64,000 bases of DNA from Alphaproteobacteria bacterium (GTDB lineage Bacteria; Pseudomonadota; Alphaproteobacteria; JAAXGF01). Shown here one piece after another: positions 21,623 to 49,449 of this stretch. The stretch lies in the NCBI GenBank assembly GCA_963555825.3, contig CAUVXB020000002.1, positions 2,112,001 to 2,176,000 on the forward strand, given 5' to 3'. The number at the start of each line of letters is the position of its first letter. The first letter of the stretch is position 1. A program made the position numbers and the translations under genes. Under the pieces are notes generated by a model that had not been told where the DNA came from, made no database searches, and saw only the letters and a program-made list of their open reading frames with translations.

Positions 21623-21952
21623 CATTTTCTTGACACTAACCCCGTTGTCGAACACCACAATGAGACAATCTTGTGATCGGTGCCCCGATTGTGCAATAGC
21701 TTATGTCGAGCAATCCCTATATATTCCTGAAATTCCTCAGCGATTCTTTCGTCGATCACATCGATGTTGTTGTAATAATGCAACAGATCGACACAAATTA
21801 CACAGAGTGGAGTTCGGCGACATTGACTCCACCACCATGGTGTGTCCTTGTTCGGCATGACTTTGTGCAACTCAGCTTACCGCTTCCCCGTGGGGACCTT
21901 TAGGACAGACAGGGAGCGTGTGGGGGCTGGCTTTGTTGAAGGGACTTGAGGA

Positions 21953-33761: not shown

Positions 33762-35469
33762 TGTCAATGGCGGAGCAAAAAGGGACCACCTCGGCGGTGT
33801 AAGAAGGGACCGCTTGGCGGCTGCGGGCTTGTCCCCGTAGTCCACGGGAGGGCCCCGCGCGCGACGCGGCGTGCCCTCAACAGGCTGACGCGGCGGCGCG
33901 CGCGGGAGGGACCTGTGGGCCCACGGGGTCAAGCGTGGGCTGGGTGGTCGGTTCAGTTAGCAGTCGGGGTTTGACGCCTGCGGCTCTGGTTGAGCCTGTA
34001 GCTGTCACCGTTCATCTCGAGGATGTTGACGTGGTGGGTGAGGCGATCGAGGAGCGCGCCGGTGAGGCGCTCGGAGCCGAACACCTCGGTCCATTCGTCG
34101 AAGGGCAGATTGGTGGTGACCAGGGTCGAGCCCCGCTCGTAGCGTTGGCTGAACACCTCGAACAACAGCTCGGCGCCGGTCTTCGACAGCGGCACGAAGC
34201 CGAGTTCGTCGACGATCAGAAGCTTGTAGGTGGCGAGCTTCTTCTGGAACCTCAGCAGCTGCTTGTCATCGCGGGCCTCGATGAGTTCGTGGACCAGCGC
34301 GGCGGCGGTGATGAAGCCGACCGAGAGGCCCTTCTGGCAGGCCGCCAGGCCGAGACCGAGGGCGATGTGGGTCTTGCCGGTCCCACTGTTGCCGAGCGCG
34401 ATGAGGTTCTCGCGGCGCTCGATGTACTCGCAGCGGGCCAGCTCCAGGACCAGCGCCTTGTTGAGCGAGGGGATGACCTTGAAGTCGAAGCTGTCGAGGC
34501 TCTTGACCACGGGGAAGCGCGCCGCCTTGATGCGCCGCTCGACCATGCGGCGCTCGCGGTCGATCAGCTCGAGCTCGGCGAGTCTCAACAGGTAGCGGAC
34601 GTGATCGACGCCTTCCGAGGCGCACTGCCGGGCGATCTTGTCGTACTCGCGCAGGAAGGTCGGCAGCTTCAGCGTCTTGAGGTGGTGGGCGAGCAGCACT
34701 TGCGGTGTGTCGGTCATGCGCCGAGCCCCGACAGCAGGCTCATGTACGACTTGGCGGACGTCATCGCGACCCGGGCGCGCGGCAGATACGGATAGACGTC
34801 GAGGTTGAGCCTGGGCGGCCGCCGCTCGATGCGGCACAGTACCAGGTGCTTCACCGCATCAAAGCCGATTGCGCCGAGCCGCAGGGCGTCGCCGACCGCA
34901 CCCTCGACCTCCTCGAGCCGGAAGGTCTCCAGTAGACGGAGCACCTGGACGTACTCGCGCTTGCCTGCCTTGCCCATACGAGCTTCGAGGAGCCGCCGCA
35001 GAGTGATGAAGGCCTCGGGCAGGTCCCAGCCCGCCAATGGCGCGGCCTGGTCGAGGGCGCCGATCTTCTGCTCGATCAAGGGCAGGTAATGCAGCGGGTC
35101 GAAGATCAGGTCCTCGCTGTCGTAGGACCGGCGGTGCCGGGCGATCACCTCGGCCCCGCAGCTGATCACCACCTCATCGACGTAGCCCCGGATGAGCACC
35201 TCACGGTGGCCGTAGGCCACGGGCACGGAATAGTCGTTGCTGCGGTAACGCACCAGCGACAGCGAACTCGCCCGTCCAGGGCGCTTATCGCAGGCATCAT
35301 AGGGAGCAGGCGGCAATGGCAAGAGAACTTGACGATCCCGCTCGAGACGCTCGCCGATGGTCTCCTTATATGAGGCGTTTGCTGTCAAGGTGGATTTAAT
35401 CTACGCCACATGATCGTCTCTTCCATTGGTTATGGCTTTGTATCCAGGGCGGGTCTTGCGATGAGTTCC

Positions 35470-35680
35470 GTGTTTCGTGCGAGTGATCGCATCACCTTAT
35501 ATCCGGCAGCTCCGATCCGGCTTGCCACAATGCTGTATACATGGACCATCACAGGACGGGGATGGGACTAATCTTGTGGACGGCACCTTCGCCAAGGAGA
35601 CATGCAGTCACACATCCAACCTGCCAACAAGCGTTCCCATCGGGGAATGAAGCCCGTTAGAACGCTGAGCTGATCCGCAG
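35470..35680 (-). ncRNA. Predicted bridge (seek) RNA; ends approximate
   Basis: Target loop GTCTCCTT-hairpin-CCACAAG (35601-35573) and donor loop ACAGCATTG-hairpin-ATATAAG (35536-35496), each closed by a stem. Confidence 0.8.
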
Positions 35681-35682
35681 TC

Positions 35683-36816
35683 CTATTTGACGACAGCACC
35701 CACCGGGATCAGCCCGGTTTCCAGATACCGCCAAAGCGCGATCGCCAGTTTGCGGGCCAGGGCGACGATCATGACGCGCCTGATGCGCCCCTTCTGACCT
35801 TGGGTGCGGTCATGGAACCACTGGGTCAGAGCGCTATCGGGTTGATGGCGGACCCAAAGCCATGCGGCTTCGATCATGGCAACCCGTGCCAGCCGATTGC
35901 CCGCCTTGGAGATGCCTTGGCTGCGGCGCCCGTCGCCGCTGTCATAGGCACTGGGCGTGATCCCGATATAGCTTGCCACCTGTCGGCGATTGGCGAACTG
36001 GCGATAATAGACTTCCCGTGCGAGCGTCGTGGATAAGGCCGGGCCGAGGCCCTTTAAGCGCAGCAGCTGGTGACGCTTGCTTTCCGTGGCCACACACGGT
36101 GTCGGCGCTTGATCACGCTCACGCTCGACCTCGACGATCTGCGCTTGGACCTGGGCCAGTCTCGCGATCTCCCGCGCGATCTCGCGGCCGAGACGGTCCG
36201 GCAGGGGTCGGCCGTCTCCGGTGACCAGCGCCGCCGGTGTCAAGGTCTTGTAGCGCGCCTTGACATTGATGCCGCGAATGCCCTGACCGAATAGCAGACC
36301 CTTGATCCGGTTGATGTGGGCGGTTCGCTCGCGGACCAATCGGTCACGTTCCCGATGAGAGCGGCGAAGGTCCTCCTCCGCGACGCTCGGAATCACCACC
36401 ATGGAGCAGACATGACGCTCGCCGCGGCACCAGGCGATCAGCGTATGAAGAATATTCTCGACATCGATGCGGTCGGTCTTCACCCGCCGCGCCCGGCGGT
36501 TGACCCGCAAGCTGGCCGGCTCCATGACCAGACACTCGATGCCGCGCTGCTCGAGGAACCGCGCCAACCAGAAGCCGTCGTAGCCGGCCTCGTAGCACAG
36601 CGTTATCGTCGGCGTTCGACCCGTCACCTTGACCACCCGGTCCCGCGCCGCGTCCAGCTTGGCCATCAGTCCTTCAGCGTCGCCGCCCTTGATCGGATGC
36701 AAGCTCGGATTGCCCCGCCCCGGAGCCTGGATCGCCAAAAGCCAGCTGTTCTTGCTCAACTCCAGTGCCGCATAAATAGCGTGTTCATTGGAGGTCGATA
36801 CCGGAAACTGTGCCAT
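35683..36816 (-). CDS. IS110-family recombinase/transposase
   Basis: RuvC-like ALELS / YEAGYDG / KTDRID; C-terminal YDSG, GISKAGN, VALARKL. Confidence 0.95.
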   Translation of the reverse strand: MAQFPVSTSNEHAIYAALELSKNSWLLAIQAPGRGNPSLHPIKGGDAEGLMAKLDAARDRVVKVTGRTPTITLCYEAGYDGFWLARFLEQRGIECLVMEPASLRVNRRARRVKTDRIDVENILHTLIAWCRGERHVCSMVVIPSVAEEDLRRSHRERDRLVRERTAHINRIKGLLFGQGIRGINVKARYKTLTPAALVTGDGRPLPDRLGREIAREIARLAQVQAQIVEVERERDQAPTPCVATESKRHQLLRLKGLGPALSTTLAREVYYRQFANRRQVASYIGITPSAYDSGDGRRSQGISKAGNRLARVAMIEAAWLWVRHQPDSALTQWFHDRTQGQKGRIRRVMIVALARKLAIALWRYLETGLIPVGAVVK

Positions 36817-37854
36817 CGTGTCGCTCCTTCTGATCGAGGTTGAAATAATCGAAGGAGCTTGAGGCTGCGTCCTTCAGCCTCATAGCATCTTGTGGCCCCG
36901 CAGCCGCGCCGCCTGGCGCCGGCGGCACTGTTCGGCGAGAGCATCGTTGAGGGCCGCGAAGCTCTCGGCACGCGGGACGGGGACCAGGAAGTTCCGCCGG
37001 ATGAAGCCGACCAGTCCCTCGACCTTGCCCTTGTCGTTGCCCTTGCCCGGCCGGCCGAACCTGTCCTCGAACAGATAGTGGGACTGAAGCTCCGTGAAGA
37101 CGCGCGTTCGCTGCCGCTTCCCATCGCCCAGGATCCGGGCAACCGCCAGCTTGGTGTTGTCGTATAGGATGGATCGGGGGACGCCGCCGAAGAAGGCAAA
37201 CGCCGCGTTGTGGCCATCGCAGAATGCTTCGGTCGTCTCCGCCGGATAGGCCGCAACAAAGCAACCATCACTGTGGGGAAGGTCGAAGGCAAGGAAGTGG
37301 ATCTTCCGTAACGCGCCGCCGATCACCGCCATCGCTTCGCCGAAGTCCGCCTGGGCGTGACCGGGGGAATGGGAGAGTGGCACGAACACCTCACGCGACC
37401 GAAGCCCCTGCTCACGAACGTAGTCCTTCACGATGGTGTAGCCGCCCGTGAAACCGTACTCGTCCCGGAGGCGGTCGAAGATGCGCTTCGCAGTGTGCCG
37501 TTGCTTGCGGTGGCTGGTCCGATCGTCTTCCAAGATCCGATCGATGATTCCCGTGAACGGACCCAGCTTTGGCCGCCTCGGCGGCGCGCTTCGGCGATAC
37601 CCTGGCGGCACCGAGAACGACAGCATCTTACGGACCGTCTTGCGGTCCACACCAAACACCCGCGAGGCCTCGCGGGTGCTCATCCCCTCGACATGACACG
37701 CCCGCCGAACCCGTGCGTACAACTCCACCCGATACATCCCCCCGCCTTCCAGTCAGAGCAACCCTGACAGAAGGCTATACGCGGTCCCATTTTGGTCCGC
37801 CGCAGCCGGATCGACCGGCCGCTTCAGTGGGGGATTATTGCTCTGCCGTTCTCA

Positions 37855-38370: not shown

Positions 38371-40942
38371 TGAGAACGGCGGCGCAATAATCCCCCACTG
38401 AAGCGGCCGGTTGATCCGGCTGTGGCGGACCAAAATGGGACCGCGTATAGCCTTCTGTCAGGGTTGCTCTGACTGGAAGGCGGGGGGATGTATCGGGTGG
38501 AGATGTACGCGCGGGTCCGGCGGCGGGCGTGTCGTGTCGAGGGAATGAGCACCCGCGAGGCCTCGCGGGTGTTCGGGCTGGACCGCAAGACGGTACGCAA
38601 GATGCTGTCGTTCTCGGTGCCGCCAGGGTATCGCCGAAGCGCGCCGCCGAGGCGGCCAAAGCTGGGTCCGTTCACGGGAATCATCGATCGGATCTTGGAA
38701 GACGATCGGACCAGCCACCGCAAGCAACGGCACACTGCGAAGCGCATCTTCGACCGCCTCCGGGACGAGTACGGTTTCACGGGCGGCTACACCATCGTGA
38801 AGGACTACGTTCGTGAGCAGGGGCTTCGGTCGCGTGAGGTGTTCGTGCCACTCTCCCATTCCCCCGGTCACGCCCAGGCGGACTTCGGCGAAGCGATGGC
38901 GGTGATCGGCGGCGCGTTACGGAAGATCCACTTCCTTGCCTTCGACCTTCCCCACAGTGATGGTTGCTTTGTTGCGGCCTATCCGGCGGAGACGACCGAA
39001 GCATTCTGCGATGGCCACAACGCGGCGTTTGCCTTCTTCGGCGGCGTCCCCCGATCCATCCTGTACGACAACACCAAGCTGGCGGTTGCCCGGATCCTGG
39101 GCGATGGGAAGCGGCAGCGAACGCGCGTCTTCACGGAGCTTCAGTCCCACTATCTGTTCGAGGACAGGTTCGGCCGGCCGGGCAAGGGCAACGACAAGGG
39201 CAAGGTCGAGGGACTGGTCGGCTTCATCCGGCGGAACTTCCTGGTCCCCGTCCCGCGTGCCGAGAGCTTCGCGGCCCTCAACGATGCTCTCGCCGAACAG
39301 TGCCGCCGGCGCCAGGCGGCGCGGCTGCGGGGCCACAAGGAGACCATCGGCGAGCGTCTCGAGCGGGATCGTCAAGTTCTCTTGCCATTGCCGCCTGCTC
39401 CCTATGATGCCTGCGATAAGCGCCCTGGACGGGCGAGTTCGCTGTCGCTGGTGCGTTACCGCAGCAACGACTATTCCGTGCCCGTGGCCTACGGCCACCG
39501 TGAGGTGCTCATCCGGGGCTACGTCGATGAGGTGGTGATCAGCTGCGGGGCCGAGGTGATCGCCCGGCACCGCCGGTCCTACGACAGCGAGGACCTGATC
39601 TTCGACCCGCTGCATTACCTGCCCTTGATCGAGCAGAAGATCGGCGCCCTCGACCAGGCCGCGCCATTGGCGGGCTGGGACCTGCCCGAGGCCTTCATCA
39701 CTCTGCGGCGGCTCCTCGAAGCTCGTATGGGCAAGGCAGGCAAGCGCGAGTACGTCCAGGTGCTCCGTCTACTGGAGACCTTCCGGCTCGAGGAGGTCGA
39801 GGGTGCGGTCGGCGACGCCCTGCGGCTCGGCGCAATCGGCTTTGATGCGGTGAAGCACCTGGTACTGTGCCGCATCGAGCGGCGGCCGCCCAGGCTCAAC
39901 CTCGACGTCTATCCGTATCTGCCGCGCGCCCGGGTCGCGATGACGTCCGCCAAGTCGTACATGAGCCTGCTGTCGGGGCTCGGCGCATGACCGACACACC
40001 GCAAGTGCTGCTCGCCCACCACCTCAAGACGCTGAAGCTGCCGACCTTCCTGCGCGAGTACGACAAGATCGCCCGGCAGTGCGCCTCGGAAGGCGTCGAT
40101 CACGTCCGCTACCTGTTGAGACTCGCCGAGCTCGAGCTGATCGACCGCGAGCGCCGCATGGTCGAGCGGCGCATCAAGGCGGCGCGCTTCCCCGTGGTCA
40201 AGAGCCTCGACAGCTTCGACTTCAAGGTCATCCCCTCGCTCAACAAGGCGCTGGTCCTGGAGCTGGCCCGCTGCGAGTACATCGAGCGCCGCGAGAACCT
40301 CATCGCGCTCGGCAACAGTGGGACCGGCAAGACCCACATCGCCCTCGGTCTCGGCCTGGCGGCCTGCCAGAAGGGCCTCTCGGTCGGCTTCATCACCGCC
40401 GCCGCGCTGGTCCACGAACTCATCGAGGCCCGCGATGACAAGCAGCTGCTGAGGTTCCAGAAGAAGCTCGCCACCTACAAGCTTCTGATCGTCGACGAAC
40501 TCGGCTTCGTGCCGCTGTCGAAGACCGGCGCCGAGCTGTTGTTCGAGGTGTTCAGCCAACGCTACGAGCGGGGCTCGACCCTGGTCACCACCAATCTGCC
40601 CTTCGACGAATGGACCGAGGTGTTCGGCTCCGAGCGCCTCACCGGCGCGCTCCTCGATCGCCTCACCCACCACGTCAACATCCTCGAGATGAACGGTGAC
40701 AGCTACAGGCTCAACCAGAGCCGCAGGCGTCAAACCCCGACTGCTAACTGAACCGACCACCCAGCCCACGCTTGACCCCGTGGGCCCACAGGTCCCTCCC
40801 GCGCGCGCCGCCGCGTCAGCCTGTTGAGGGCACGCCGCGTCGCGCGCGGGGCCCTCCCGTGGACTACGGGGACAAGCCCGCAGCCGCCAAGCGGTCCCTT
40901 CTTACACCGCCGAGGTGGTCCCTTTTTGCTCCGCCATTGACA
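38371..40942 (+). mobile_element. IS21-family element, copy B (istA 38488-39990, istB 39987-40751)
   Basis: Ends TGAGAACGGC...CCGCCATTGACA; flanks CCGGCTA/CGGGCTA; QADFG, YDN, KGKVE; Walker A GNSGTGKT. Confidence 0.96.
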
Positions 40943-46879: not shown

Positions 46880-49449
46880 TGTCAATGGCGGAGCAAAAAG
46901 GGACCACCTCGGCGGTGTAAGAAGGGACCGCTTGGCGGCTGCGGGCTTGTCCCCGTAGTCCACGGGAGGGCCCCGCGCGCGACGCGGCGTGCCCTCAACA
47001 GGCTGACGCGGCGGCGCGCGCGGGAGGGACCTGTGGGCCCACGGGGTCAAGCGTGGGCTGGGTGGTCGGTTCAGTTAGCAGTCGGGGTTTGACGCCTGCG
47101 GCTCTGGTTGAGCCTGTAGCTGTCACCGTTCATCTCGAGGATGTTGACGTGGTGGGTGAGGCGATCGAGGAGCGCGCCGGTGAGGCGCTCGGAGCCGAAC
47201 ACCTCGGTCCATTCGTCGAAGGGCAGATTGGTGGTGACCAGGGTCGAGCCCCGCTCGTAGCGTTGGCTGAACACCTCGAACAACAGCTCGGCGCCGGTCT
47301 TCGACAGCGGCACGAAGCCGAGTTCGTCGACGATCAGAAGCTTGTAGGTGGCGAGCTTCTTCTGGAACCTCAGCAGCTGCTTGTCATCGCGGGCCTCGAT
47401 GAGTTCGTGGACCAGCGCGGCGGCGGTGATGAAGCCGACCGAGAGGCCCTTCTGGCAGGCCGCCAGGCCGAGACCGAGGGCGATGTGGGTCTTGCCGGTC
47501 CCACTGTTGCCGAGCGCGATGAGGTTCTCGCGGCGCTCGATGTACTCGCAGCGGGCCAGCTCCAGGACCAGCGCCTTGTTGAGCGAGGGGATGACCTTGA
47601 AGTCGAAGCTGTCGAGGCTCTTGACCACGGGGAAGCGCGCCGCCTTGATGCGCCGCTCGACCATGCGGCGCTCGCGGTCGATCAGCTCGAGCTCGGCGAG
47701 TCTCAACAGGTAGCGGACGTGATCGACGCCTTCCGAGGCGCACTGCCGGGCGATCTTGTCGTACTCGCGCAGGAAGGTCGGCAGCTTCAGCGTCTTGAGG
47801 TGGTGGGCGAGCAGCACTTGCGGTGTGTCGGTCATGCGCCGAGCCCCGACAGCAGGCTCATGTACGACTTGGCGGACGTCATCGCGACCCGGGCGCGCGG
47901 CAGATACGGATAGACGTCGAGGTTGAGCCTGGGCGGCCGCCGCTCGATGCGGCACAGTACCAGGTGCTTCACCGCATCAAAGCCGATTGCGCCGAGCCGC
48001 AGGGCGTCGCCGACCGCACCCTCGACCTCCTCGAGCCGGAAGGTCTCCAGTAGACGGAGCACCTGGACGTACTCGCGCTTGCCTGCCTTGCCCATACGAG
48101 CTTCGAGGAGCCGCCGCAGAGTGATGAAGGCCTCGGGCAGGTCCCAGCCCGCCAATGGCGCGGCCTGGTCGAGGGCGCCGATCTTCTGCTCGATCAAGGG
48201 CAGGTAATGCAGCGGGTCGAAGATCAGGTCCTCGCTGTCGTAGGACCGGCGGTGCCGGGCGATCACCTCGGCCCCGCAGCTGATCACCACCTCATCGACG
48301 TAGCCCCGGATGAGCACCTCACGGTGGCCGTAGGCCACGGGCACGGAATAGTCGTTGCTGCGGTAACGCACCAGCGACAGCGAACTCGCCCGTCCAGGGC
48401 GCTTATCGCAGGCATCATAGGGAGCAGGCGGCAATGGCAAGAGAACTTGACGATCCCGCTCGAGACGCTCGCCGATGGTCTCCTTGTGGCCCCGCAGCCG
48501 CGCCGCCTGGCGCCGGCGGCACTGTTCGGCGAGAGCATCGTTGAGGGCCGCGAAGCTCTCGGCACGCGGGACGGGGACCAGGAAGTTCCGCCGGATGAAG
48601 CCGACCAGTCCCTCGACCTTGCCCTTGTCGTTGCCCTTGCCCGGCCGGCCGAACCTGTCCTCGAACAGATAGTGGGACTGAAGCTCCGTGAAGACGCGCG
48701 TTCGCTGCCGCTTCCCATCGCCCAGGATCCGGGCAACCGCCAGCTTGGTGTTGTCGTACAGGATGGATCGGGGGACGCCGCCGAAGAAGGCAAACGCCGC
48801 GTTGTGGCCATCGCAGAATGCTTCGGTCGTCTCCGCCGGATAGGCCGCAACAAAGCAACCATCACTGTGGGGAAGGTCGAAGGCAAGGAAGTGGATCTTC
48901 CGTAACGCGCCGCCGATCACCGCCATCGCTTCGCCGAAGTCCGCCTGGGCGTGACCGGGGGAATGGGAGAGTGGCACGAACACCTCACGCGACCGAAGCC
49001 CCTGCTCACGAACGTAGTCCTTCACGATGGTGTAGCCGCCCGTGAAACCGTACTCGTCCCGGAGGCGGTCGAAGATGCGCTTCGCAGTGTGCCGTTGCTT
49101 GCGGTGGCTGGTCCGATCGTCTTCCAAGATCCGATCGATGATTCCCGTGAACGGACCCAGCTTTGGCCGCCTCGGCGGCGCGCTTCGGCGATACCCTGGC
49201 GGCACCGAGAACGACAGCATCTTACGGACCGTCTTGCGGTCTACACCAAACACCCGCGAGGCCTCGCGGGTGCTCATCCCCTCGACATGACACGCCCGCC
49301 GAACCCGTGCGTACAACTCCACCCGATACATCCCCCCCGCCTTCCAGTCAGAGCAACCCTGACAGAAGGCTATACGCGGTCCCATTTTGGTCCGCCGCAG
49401 CCGGATCGACCGGCCGCTTCAGTGGGGGATTATTGCTCTGCCGTTCTCA
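46880..49449 (-). mobile_element. IS21-family element, copy C (istA 47832-49331, istB 47071-47835)
   Basis: Exact 6-bp target duplication CCGCTC; near-identical to copies A and B. Confidence 0.96.

Follow-up and report, generated by a model that had tools for sequence, protein, structure and literature searches.

The stretch of DNA analysed here (the window, 64,000 nucleotides) covers positions 2,112,001 to 2,176,000 of contig CAUVXB020000002.1 in the assembly GCA_963555825.3 of an alphaproteobacterium (GTDB lineage JAAXGF01). At positions 35368-36888 of its minus strand lies a 1521 bp insertion sequence (IS) of the IS110 family with the layout of the IS1111 group, inserted into istA of an IS21-family element and carrying, downstream of its transposase gene, a predicted two-loop RNA of the bridge/seekRNA type. 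The parts of the element and of its immediate surroundings, in window coordinates, are as follows.

33762-35367 and 36889-37854 (span 33762-37854), minus strand: IS21-family copy A, host of the element
35360-35367, plus strand: right target half with one copy of CTT (GTCTC-CTT on the plus strand)
35368-35682, minus strand: 3′ non-coding region, 315 nt, encoding the predicted bridge/seekRNA
35370-35376, minus strand: subterminal inverted repeat of the right end, GCCUCAU, with the terminal AU(A) after it
35388-35383, minus strand: outward TTGACA, 15 nt from the right end, the likely -35 hexamer of a circle-junction promoter
35683-36816, minus strand: transposase (recombinase) gene, 377 amino acids, the single long open reading frame (ORF) of the element
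36817-36888, minus strand: left end, 72 nt
36883-36877, minus strand: 7 bp subterminal inverted repeat ATGAGGC of the left end, preceded by the terminal ATGCT
36889-36895, plus strand: left target half with the other copy of CTT (CTT-GTGG on the plus strand)

A preliminary description of the stretch, made from its letters alone, had placed the ends of the element at 35368 and 36888 with CTT on both sides, and these ends and the CTT copies (35365-35367 and 36889-36891) were confirmed. Contigs from three sequencing runs link 35364 to 36889 (a skip of 1524, with three ambiguous bases), and as these joints represent the uninterrupted form of IS21, they confirm the boundaries. In the orientation of the element, the insertion reads CCACAAG, element, AAGGAGAC. 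With the core read as AG/CT, one core copy and the adjoining A are counted within the element; relatives in which the left flank ends in GAG or TAG and the right flank starts with AAG show AG (CT on the opposite strand) to be the true core. The element ends are asymmetric, the sole repeat being the 7-bp subterminal ATGAGGC/GCCTCAT, and the terminal extensions beyond the repeats measure 7 bp on the left and 3 bp on the right when the AG core is assigned to the left. The left-end sequence AGATGCTATGAGG was unchanged in 14 of 14 aligned sequences.

The IS21 unit comprises 2572 bp with istA and istB and is present in about 84 copies genome-wide, three of which are in the window: copy A, copy B (38371-40942) and copy C (46880-49449). 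In copy A, istA is broken near codon 283 of 500, one piece (36880-37737) carrying the Pfam domain rve and the other (34714-35388) Mu-transpos_C_2, which bears out the earlier placement of the element inside istA. The transposase gene of the element runs parallel to istA, an intact version of which (500 amino acids) is found at 38488-39990.

Within the 3′ non-coding region, the following RNA features were assigned, all on the minus strand.

35478-35619, minus strand: two-loop RNA core, 142 model positions, scoring 159.1 bits with the purpose-built covariance model R1
35560-35617, minus strand: target-binding stem-loop, 58 nt, closed by GGAUGUGUGACU (35617-35606) and AGUCCCAUCC (35569-35560)
35617-35606, minus strand: motif GGATGTGTGACT, 5′ closing strand of the target loop
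35601-35594, minus strand: motif GTCTCCTT
35594-35601, minus strand: 5′ target guide GUCUCCUU, complementary to core and right target on the top strand (AAGGAGAC)
35593-35582, minus strand: inner GGC..GCC hairpin of the target loop
35573-35579, minus strand: 3′ target guide CCACAAG, identical to left target plus core and thus pairing with the bottom strand
35569-35560, minus strand: motif AGTCCCATCC, 3′ closing strand of the target loop
35536-35528, minus strand: motif ACAGCATTG
35528-35536, minus strand: 5′ donor guide ACAGCAUUG, complementary to the left-end start ATGCTAT at 6/7 positions, the less certain guide
35505-35526, minus strand: donor-loop inner hairpin GGCA..UGCC (with CCG/CGG), invariant among close relatives
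35496-35502, minus strand: 3′ donor guide AUAUAAG, equal to the final 4 nt of the right end with the core added, 7/7

Every loop word given in the preliminary description was located on the minus strand where it had been claimed, and the two words of the first loop, GUCUCCUU and CCACAAG, match the right and left target halves, respectively. When the 315-nt region was shuffled by mononucleotides 200000 times, both target words co-occurred in only 22 of the shuffles. The claimed match of the second loop to the circle junction stood in full for its 3′ word (ATATAAG, 7/7) and in part for its 5′ word, within which ACAGCAU corresponds to the left-end start (6/7). The proposed closure of this loop by GTGAT/ATCAC was not supported, since its 3′ strand is not conserved in 11 relatives.

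The genome to which the window belongs (G000; 6.04 Mb in two contigs, C1 and C2) contains 11 full-length copies of the element, with 99.87-100% identity and intact ORFs. All 11 are inserted in one orientation within [C/T]CA[C/T]AAG-GAGAC, with no conservation beyond those 12 bases. Seven of them occupy the same IS21 site, and the remaining four were found in other contexts.

C2:798605: left half and core CCATAAG, right flank AAGGAGAC
C2:1503420: left half and core TCACAAG, right flank AAGGAGAC
C2:3454584: left half and core CCACAAG, right flank AAGGAGAC
C2:3497095: left half and core TCACAAG, right flank AAGGAGAC

Outside the 12 bases, the flanks of these four copies are unrelated to IS21; one lies at the edge of a different element of the IS110 family, one where an IS5-family element ends, and two in other DNA. 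The IS21 site also holds two truncated copies and one diverged right-end fragment, and a left-end fragment outside IS21 was located at C2:1770000 in CTACAAG, bringing the total to 15 occupied sites or remnants in the genome. Empty perfect 12-mers number 69, all of them in IS21, against a chance expectation of about 0.7 per 12 Mb of two-strand sequence, and the only perfect site outside IS21 is occupied. Five further IS21 copies have an empty variant of the site with one mismatch (TCAC). In the window, the 12-mer is empty in IS21 copies B (39333-39344, minus strand) and C (48478-48489, plus strand), as had been reported.

The specificity is thus for a 12-base word, the extent of which equals that of the two RNA guides, and not for IS21 as such; since nearly every occurrence of the word is in IS21, the latter serves as the target in practice. 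The earlier statement that the element is aimed at another mobile element holds in effect (69/69 empty perfect sites in IS21) and not in the strict sense, with 4/11 full copies elsewhere. The refuting condition named in the preliminary description, other copies in unrelated targets with an unchanged loop, came out in favour of its reading: the copies outside IS21 retain the loop and are nevertheless placed in the same 11-12-mer. The bridge/seekRNA layout of the IS110 family, as first proposed, is backed by the 11 copies sharing only the 12-mer, and also by the covariation of guides and flanks described below.

The accumulation in IS21 might alternatively be due to hitch-hiking, i.e. a single insertion into IS21 and subsequent spread of a 4.1-kb IS21::element composite, driven by IstA/IstB that other copies of IS21 supply in trans, or else by duplication or gene conversion. 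On this view, the 9-10 IS21 copies that are occupied would not be independent RNA-guided events. Such a spread would suit an IS21 that is clearly active in this genome (about 84 copies, the long copies having a mean identity of 99.0%), and 58 of the 73 complete IS21 left parts are identical across 73 informative columns, which indicates a very recent, massive IS21 expansion and leaves the haplotype comparison powerless to separate independent insertion from hitch-hiking. The element follows nine of the 73 complete left parts; seven of the nine share the haplotype of 51 empty copies, so that their independence is not demonstrable, whereas two are of other haplotypes, one of them shared with an empty copy. 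Element copies within IS21 are mutually identical, as expected of a composite, but the left part of copy A, which hosts the window copy, is only 98.1% identical to copy B, and a diverged element lineage (89%, with the same 3′ target guide) also sits at the IS21 site. Outside IS21, four full copies and, at C2:1770000, the left-end fragment are placed in the same 11-12-mer, so that guided insertion did take place repeatedly. On balance, hitch-hiking is considered an unlikely explanation of the bias toward IS21, although one that retains appreciable weight, and some of the copies in IS21 may have spread as its passengers.

Several observations on target sites and related elements were made alongside the copy census. 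The word GTCTCATTGTGG at window positions 21655-21666 (minus strand) differs from the target by one base beside the core and is empty. The target word contains AAGGAG, and at C2:798605, where the right flank consists of AAGGAGAC, 6 nt and ATG, the site looks like the ribosome-binding site of the downstream gene. The diverged right-end fragment in the IS21 site (C1:1251402-1251631) has no transposase gene, is 89% identical to the element, and shares its 3′ target guide but differs in the distal part of the non-coding region; it represents a remnant of an earlier lineage of the element, and its presence in IS21 implies that the IS21 habit is older than the current burst. A second IS110-family element (L005 3109-4128; C2 about 1505029-1506047) encodes a 339-amino-acid transposase with a full DEDD match and returned 15 blast matches, several about 91% identical. 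It is placed head-to-head with copy C2:1503420, the target word of which is provided by the left junction of this second element; its other copies abut ...AG-C(G/A)GAC. An IS5-family element (L009 1-1500; C2 about 3495595-3497094; DDE_Tnp_1, DDE_Tnp_1_6 and DUF772) occurs in about 30 copies and ends in ...CTGGGTCA, in most copies followed by four variable bases and a conserved CAGAC; one such end spells the target by chance and hosts copy C2:3497095. Moreover, R1 matched with 46.5 bits at C2:2829435-2829591 (plus strand) on a third, distant IS110-family element with other target-loop words, which gives the genome at least three families of the bridge-RNA type.

The transposase of the element matched the Pfam families Transposase_20 (PF02371, E-value 1.6e-16) and DEDD_Tnp_IS110 (PF01548, E-value 1.1e-9), both above the curated cut-offs. 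Its conserved residues include the acidic tetrad E19, E76, D115 and D118 and the serine motif S293-G294, of which E76, D115, D118 and S293-G294 align with the ISCro4 and IS621 structures. The profile of the clade gave a full-length alignment with the transposase of IS4321 from plasmid R751 (probability 99.2%), for which BLASTP gave 24% identity over 313 residues (residues 58-362), and the alignment with IS621 and ISCro4 was confined to the C-terminal serine domain (E-values 6.8e-8 and 3e-12) and, weakly, the surroundings of E76/D115/D118. The N-terminal RuvC-like DEDD domain, the C-terminal domain with the serine motif G(L)-P----SG, the site- and orientation-specific insertion and the absence of long terminal inverted repeats are those of the IS110 family, and the short left end (72 nt) together with the long right non-coding end (315 nt) downstream of the transposase gene is the arrangement of IS1111.

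The replacement of the first catalytic D by E (motif ALELS), already pointed out in the preliminary description, is real, yet it is no peculiarity of this copy. E19 aligns with the D of GIDLGK in IS4321 (GIDLGKNSF), E was found in all 78 rows covering the column (the reference and 77 loci), and among 113 representatives at 37-50% identity the column contained E in 96, D in 15, H in one and a gap in one. According to these alignments, having E as the first catalytic residue is usual in the clade and not a defect of this copy. The Pfam DEDD model matches from profile position 42 only, and at least two other IS110-family elements are present in the genome, as might be expected if the element were catalytically dead and moved in trans by another IS110-family transposase. 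With E predominating in the clade at a column that aligns with the catalytic D of IS4321, and with 11 near-identical copies with intact ORFs pointing to recent activity, this is very improbable.

A scan of one genome per species identified 80 loci encoding relatives of the transposase with 49-89% identity. R1, which models the two-loop core with 142 positions and 20 pairs, located the RNA just downstream of the gene for the transposase at 77 of the 80, the misses being L072, L073 and L100 (two of the three with <200 nt of downstream sequence). Across a set of 12 close relatives, hardly any variation was seen in the donor loop or at the ends of the element, while the target words varied and tracked their own flanks: RNA and left flank both read GGTAGAG in L024 and GGTAAAG in L027, RNA and flank agreed likewise in L034 (CCCTGAG) and L035 (CCGCGAG), and in L022, L025, L027 and L030 the guide GTCCGCTT was matched by the right flank AAGCGGAC. 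Guide and flank of L028 differed by one G-U pair, and one mismatch in one guide each was counted in L022, L024, L029, L030 and L031. In a cognate test, in which the element ends were set by end motifs alone and the core was removed, a shared run of at least 6 bases with the right flank was obtained for 17 of 34 cognate versus 11 of 1094 non-cognate pairs, and a run of at least 5 bases with the left flank for 31 of 57 versus 116 of 2988, the flank detection by simple end motifs having failed or erred at some distant loci.

The stems covary as well. Helix 1 of the target loop was 95.9% paired over 61 distinct sequences, with 7/10 pairs changing on both sides, and overall stem pairing in alignment A5 was 96.9%, compared to 88.0% in shuffles and 30-50% with slid partners, although paired percentages are inflated in A5, which was fitted to the model structure. 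Ten of the 20 model pairs change on both sides, seven of these in the closing stem of the target loop, and the same closing stem was returned by RNAalifold on an independent MAFFT alignment, with a change from G-C to A-U in four sequences. On the donor side, the 3′ guide equals right end plus core at 7/7 positions in 16 of 20 classes, and the donor guide AUAUGAG accompanies GAG-starting flanks in 3/3 classes. Whichever base the left end has at position 3 (G, C or T), the RNA mirrors it in most groups; among the exceptions (L046/L048/L043, the L081 group, L061, L099 and L060), some may be faulty end calls.

Matches to the element DNA were obtained in 8 of 41 related genomes, G000 included. Those outside G000 were partial, many of them comprising only element ends on fragmented assemblies, where nesting in IS21 could not be scored. 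The plasmid collection yielded no more than transposase stretches of 60-90% identity, and no copy there covered 80% of the query. One close relative, L027, lies on a 1.7-kb contig with an 80% identical element that was binned into a metagenome-assembled genome of Thermoactinomyces (Bacillota); all other close relatives are from Alphaproteobacteria, and the placement of L027 probably reflects faulty binning and not a transfer.

In relatives with a protein identity of 49-60%, a 4-6 bp hairpin lies between the two loops (in alignment A5, for example, CCGC..GCGG, CCCC..GGGG or GCUGC..GCAGC) and takes in the presumed donor guide with its 5′ part. This hairpin cannot form in the subclade of the window element, and the difference between the subclades may be a structural one or may reflect a switch.

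Taken with the copies and the covariation, the element appears to be an active, RNA-guided insertion sequence of the IS1111 type, and we assign a probability of about 0.9 to its being an autonomous IS110-family element, with a DEDD/serine recombinase guided by the RNA of its 3′ region. The recombinase would work with an RNA made from the 3′ non-coding region, in the target loop of which GUCUCCUU would pair with the top strand (core and right target) and CCACAAG with the bottom strand (left target and core). In the donor loop, AUAUAAG and ACAGCAU would pair with the abutted right and left ends of the excised circle, and recombination over the shared AG/CT core would insert the element in one orientation into CCACA-AG-GAGAC; for a donor with joined ends, the expected integration site is CCACAAGGAGAC. 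By this route the element would accumulate in istA of the roughly 84-copy IS21 and truncate IstA. The anatomy, the copy census, the guide/flank and stem covariation and the presence of the non-coding region in RNA libraries are direct observations, and the processing and binding of the RNA, the formation of the circle, the junction promoter and the chemistry are modelled on the published IS621, ISEc11 and related systems. The guide order, with the complement of the top strand first, and the 7-bp and 3-bp extensions agree with the IS1111 rule of PMC11187229.

The outward, perfect TTGACA expected at the right end is present (35388-35383, minus strand), and the hexamer is conserved in seven close relatives. 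In the joined circle it is followed, after a 17-nt spacer, by GATGCT as candidate -10 hexamer (3/6), and in the integrated state the best -10 candidate scores 2/6. A sigma-70 scan found no promoter within the integrated element and one terminator-like site across the right boundary, which was no excess over shuffles. Contigs from RNA libraries of two studies cover the 3′ non-coding region (run X18, 35360-35718; X19, 35364-35760; X9, the whole element); since such contigs may contain DNA, this cover denotes presence and is not a proof of transcription. In X18 and X19, which are of one study, no contig lies on the transposase gene body, which is covered by the DNA run of the sample of X19. One RNA-library contig of run X9 departs from the element at 35511 and passes there into what resembles a variant right end, which suggests a rearranged or related copy in the sample.

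In addition to the possible DNA in these libraries, the inflated pairing percentages and the fallible flank calls, several points weigh against the RNA-guided reading. The -10 hexamer of the joined circle is weak, and no circle-junction joint was among those reported for the contigs of four runs, in which rare forms are dropped. The 5′ donor guide has a conserved C-A mismatch, its core part pairs by one G-U only, and in distant relatives a hairpin overlaps it. For the closing stem of the donor loop, two pairings compete: an alternative closure, G[C/U]GA/UCGC, fits 11 of 12 sequences, but a local hairpin competes for the same UCGC. A long-range stem suggested by RNAalifold (columns 35-42 with 165-172) was rejected, as it clashes with the invariant donor hairpin. 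Minimum-free-energy folds of the single sequence were no better than shuffles (z +0.83 and +1.13), so that thermodynamics by itself lends no support, and Rfam returned no match for positions 34500-37800 of the window at E-values up to 10. Finally, the transposase has 377 amino acids where 330-350 are typical of IS1111, and the repeat has 7 bp where 11-13 bp are usual (PMC11187229), although 7 bp is the short end of the 7-17 bp range given in PMC11208160. The unremarkable folds and the lack of an Rfam match would also suit a target chosen solely by the protein, or through pairing of the ends at the DNA-DNA level, with the matches in the 3′ region as end relics or chance, but this is hardly credible given that guides and flanks covary over dozens of relatives with similar protein and ends, that the stems covary, that both target words arise by chance at only the shuffle frequency given above, and that published family members require the RNA (PMC11187229, PMC11208160).

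In a maximum-likelihood tree of 17 chosen transposases, the window element was nested among carriers of GTCCGCTT, its neighbours being the sisters L022 and L023, followed by L026, L030, L025 and L027. Those relatives occupy a palindromic word, GTCCGCTT-(N, 9-10 nt)-AAG-CGGAC, and the nearest of them have the guides GUCCGCUU/CC(A)AAAG, from which the window guides differ at two positions in the 5′ guide and at one in the 3′ guide. In the own genome, only two palindromic loci of that type were present. The guide thus appears to be derived, about three bases from a palindrome-targeting ancestor; on the simplest reading, it was naturally re-aimed, through about three substitutions, at a word that an abundant IS21 carries. 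More tentatively, and with the odds somewhat against it, the element may represent a naturally re-programmed lineage homing on istA of an expanding IS21, a hyperparasite using a multi-copy selfish gene as a safe harbour.

As separate observations, the palindromic word of L022, L023, L025 and L030 resembles a hairpin of the REP or terminator type, and the same type of palindromic junction was seen as a loose end at window position 36891 in runs X19 and X2, which are sponge metagenomes. The loose ends imply that a sister element with the ancestral guide coexists there.

Compared to the IS1111 elements with seekRNAs (ISEc11, ISKpn4, ISPst6 and ISPa11; PMC11187229), the element shares the long non-coding region downstream of the gene, the subterminal repeats with 7-bp left and 3-bp right extensions, and an outward -35 hexamer at the right end for a junction promoter, and its short linear target word, of about 12 bp, has a counterpart in ISEc11. 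In size, the target stem-loop (58 nt) and the two-loop form (142 nt) can be compared with a seekRNA of 70-100 nt and a long form of 154 nt in that study, which also reports natural reprogramming between close IS1111 relatives. Those elements have D in the first catalytic position, whereas the present one has E and targets a site inside an IS21 transposase gene. With IS621 (PMC11208160; structures 8WT6 and others) it has in common the two internal loops with two opposite-strand guides each, pairings that include the core, the CT/AG core itself, and a donor loop more conserved than the target loop. The RNA of IS621, however, is at the 5′ end and not at the 3′ end, the guide order is reversed, and the natural target there is a REP element, which it is not here; the C-terminal serine domains align, while the N-terminal domain is too diverged for phmmer. 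The IS621 donor string put forward for comparison in the preliminary description was not found in the main text of PMC11208160, so that the resemblance to it is a putative one.

Mobile elements are known targets of related systems: IS4321/IS5075 target the terminal repeats of Tn21-family transposons and the IS1111-attC group targets attC of integrons (PMC11208160, PMC11187229), so that such targeting is a known habit of the IS1111 family. Their targets are non-coding end or recombination sites, in contrast to the coding site in the IS21 transposase that is presumably inactivated here. ISPpu9 of Pseudomonas putida, with its small RNA Ssr9 (PMC12288879), likewise belongs to the IS110 family, has a gene for a small RNA downstream of that for the transposase, and has repeat-sequence targets. 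Ssr9 is reportedly dispensable for transposition and also occurs as separate modules (PMC12288879); unlike these modules, the sole transposase-less RNA copy in the present genome is a truncated, diverged remnant. In the collection of papers searched, no IS110/IS1111 element was reported as targeting istA or IS21, although the supplements of PMC11208160 and PMC11187229 may list a relative, and nothing was found on bridge RNAs in sponge symbionts.

The known mechanism is unchanged by this element, and published surveys predicted such RNAs in most family members; the target inside the istA coding sequence is a neat but modest twist on a known RNA-guided IS type. With 15 occupied sites or remnants and 69 perfect empty sites in one genome, it provides a clean natural example of the re-aiming of a bridge/seekRNA, and across the set of relatives the guides are seen to change together with the targets. 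To tool builders it gives a compact ortholog in which the first catalytic residue is unusual and the target code of 12 bases can be read. If the tentative view of a lineage homing on istA is true, about one IS21 copy in eight has been knocked out by the element, which may hold IS21 in check in a genome that is best matched by sequencing runs of sponge metagenomes, and the locus would represent a natural RNA-guided conflict between insertion sequences, conducted by an ortholog with an E-E-D-D active site. The safe harbour would then be the transposase gene of another IS, which bears on the mutual limitation of mobile elements during IS expansion.

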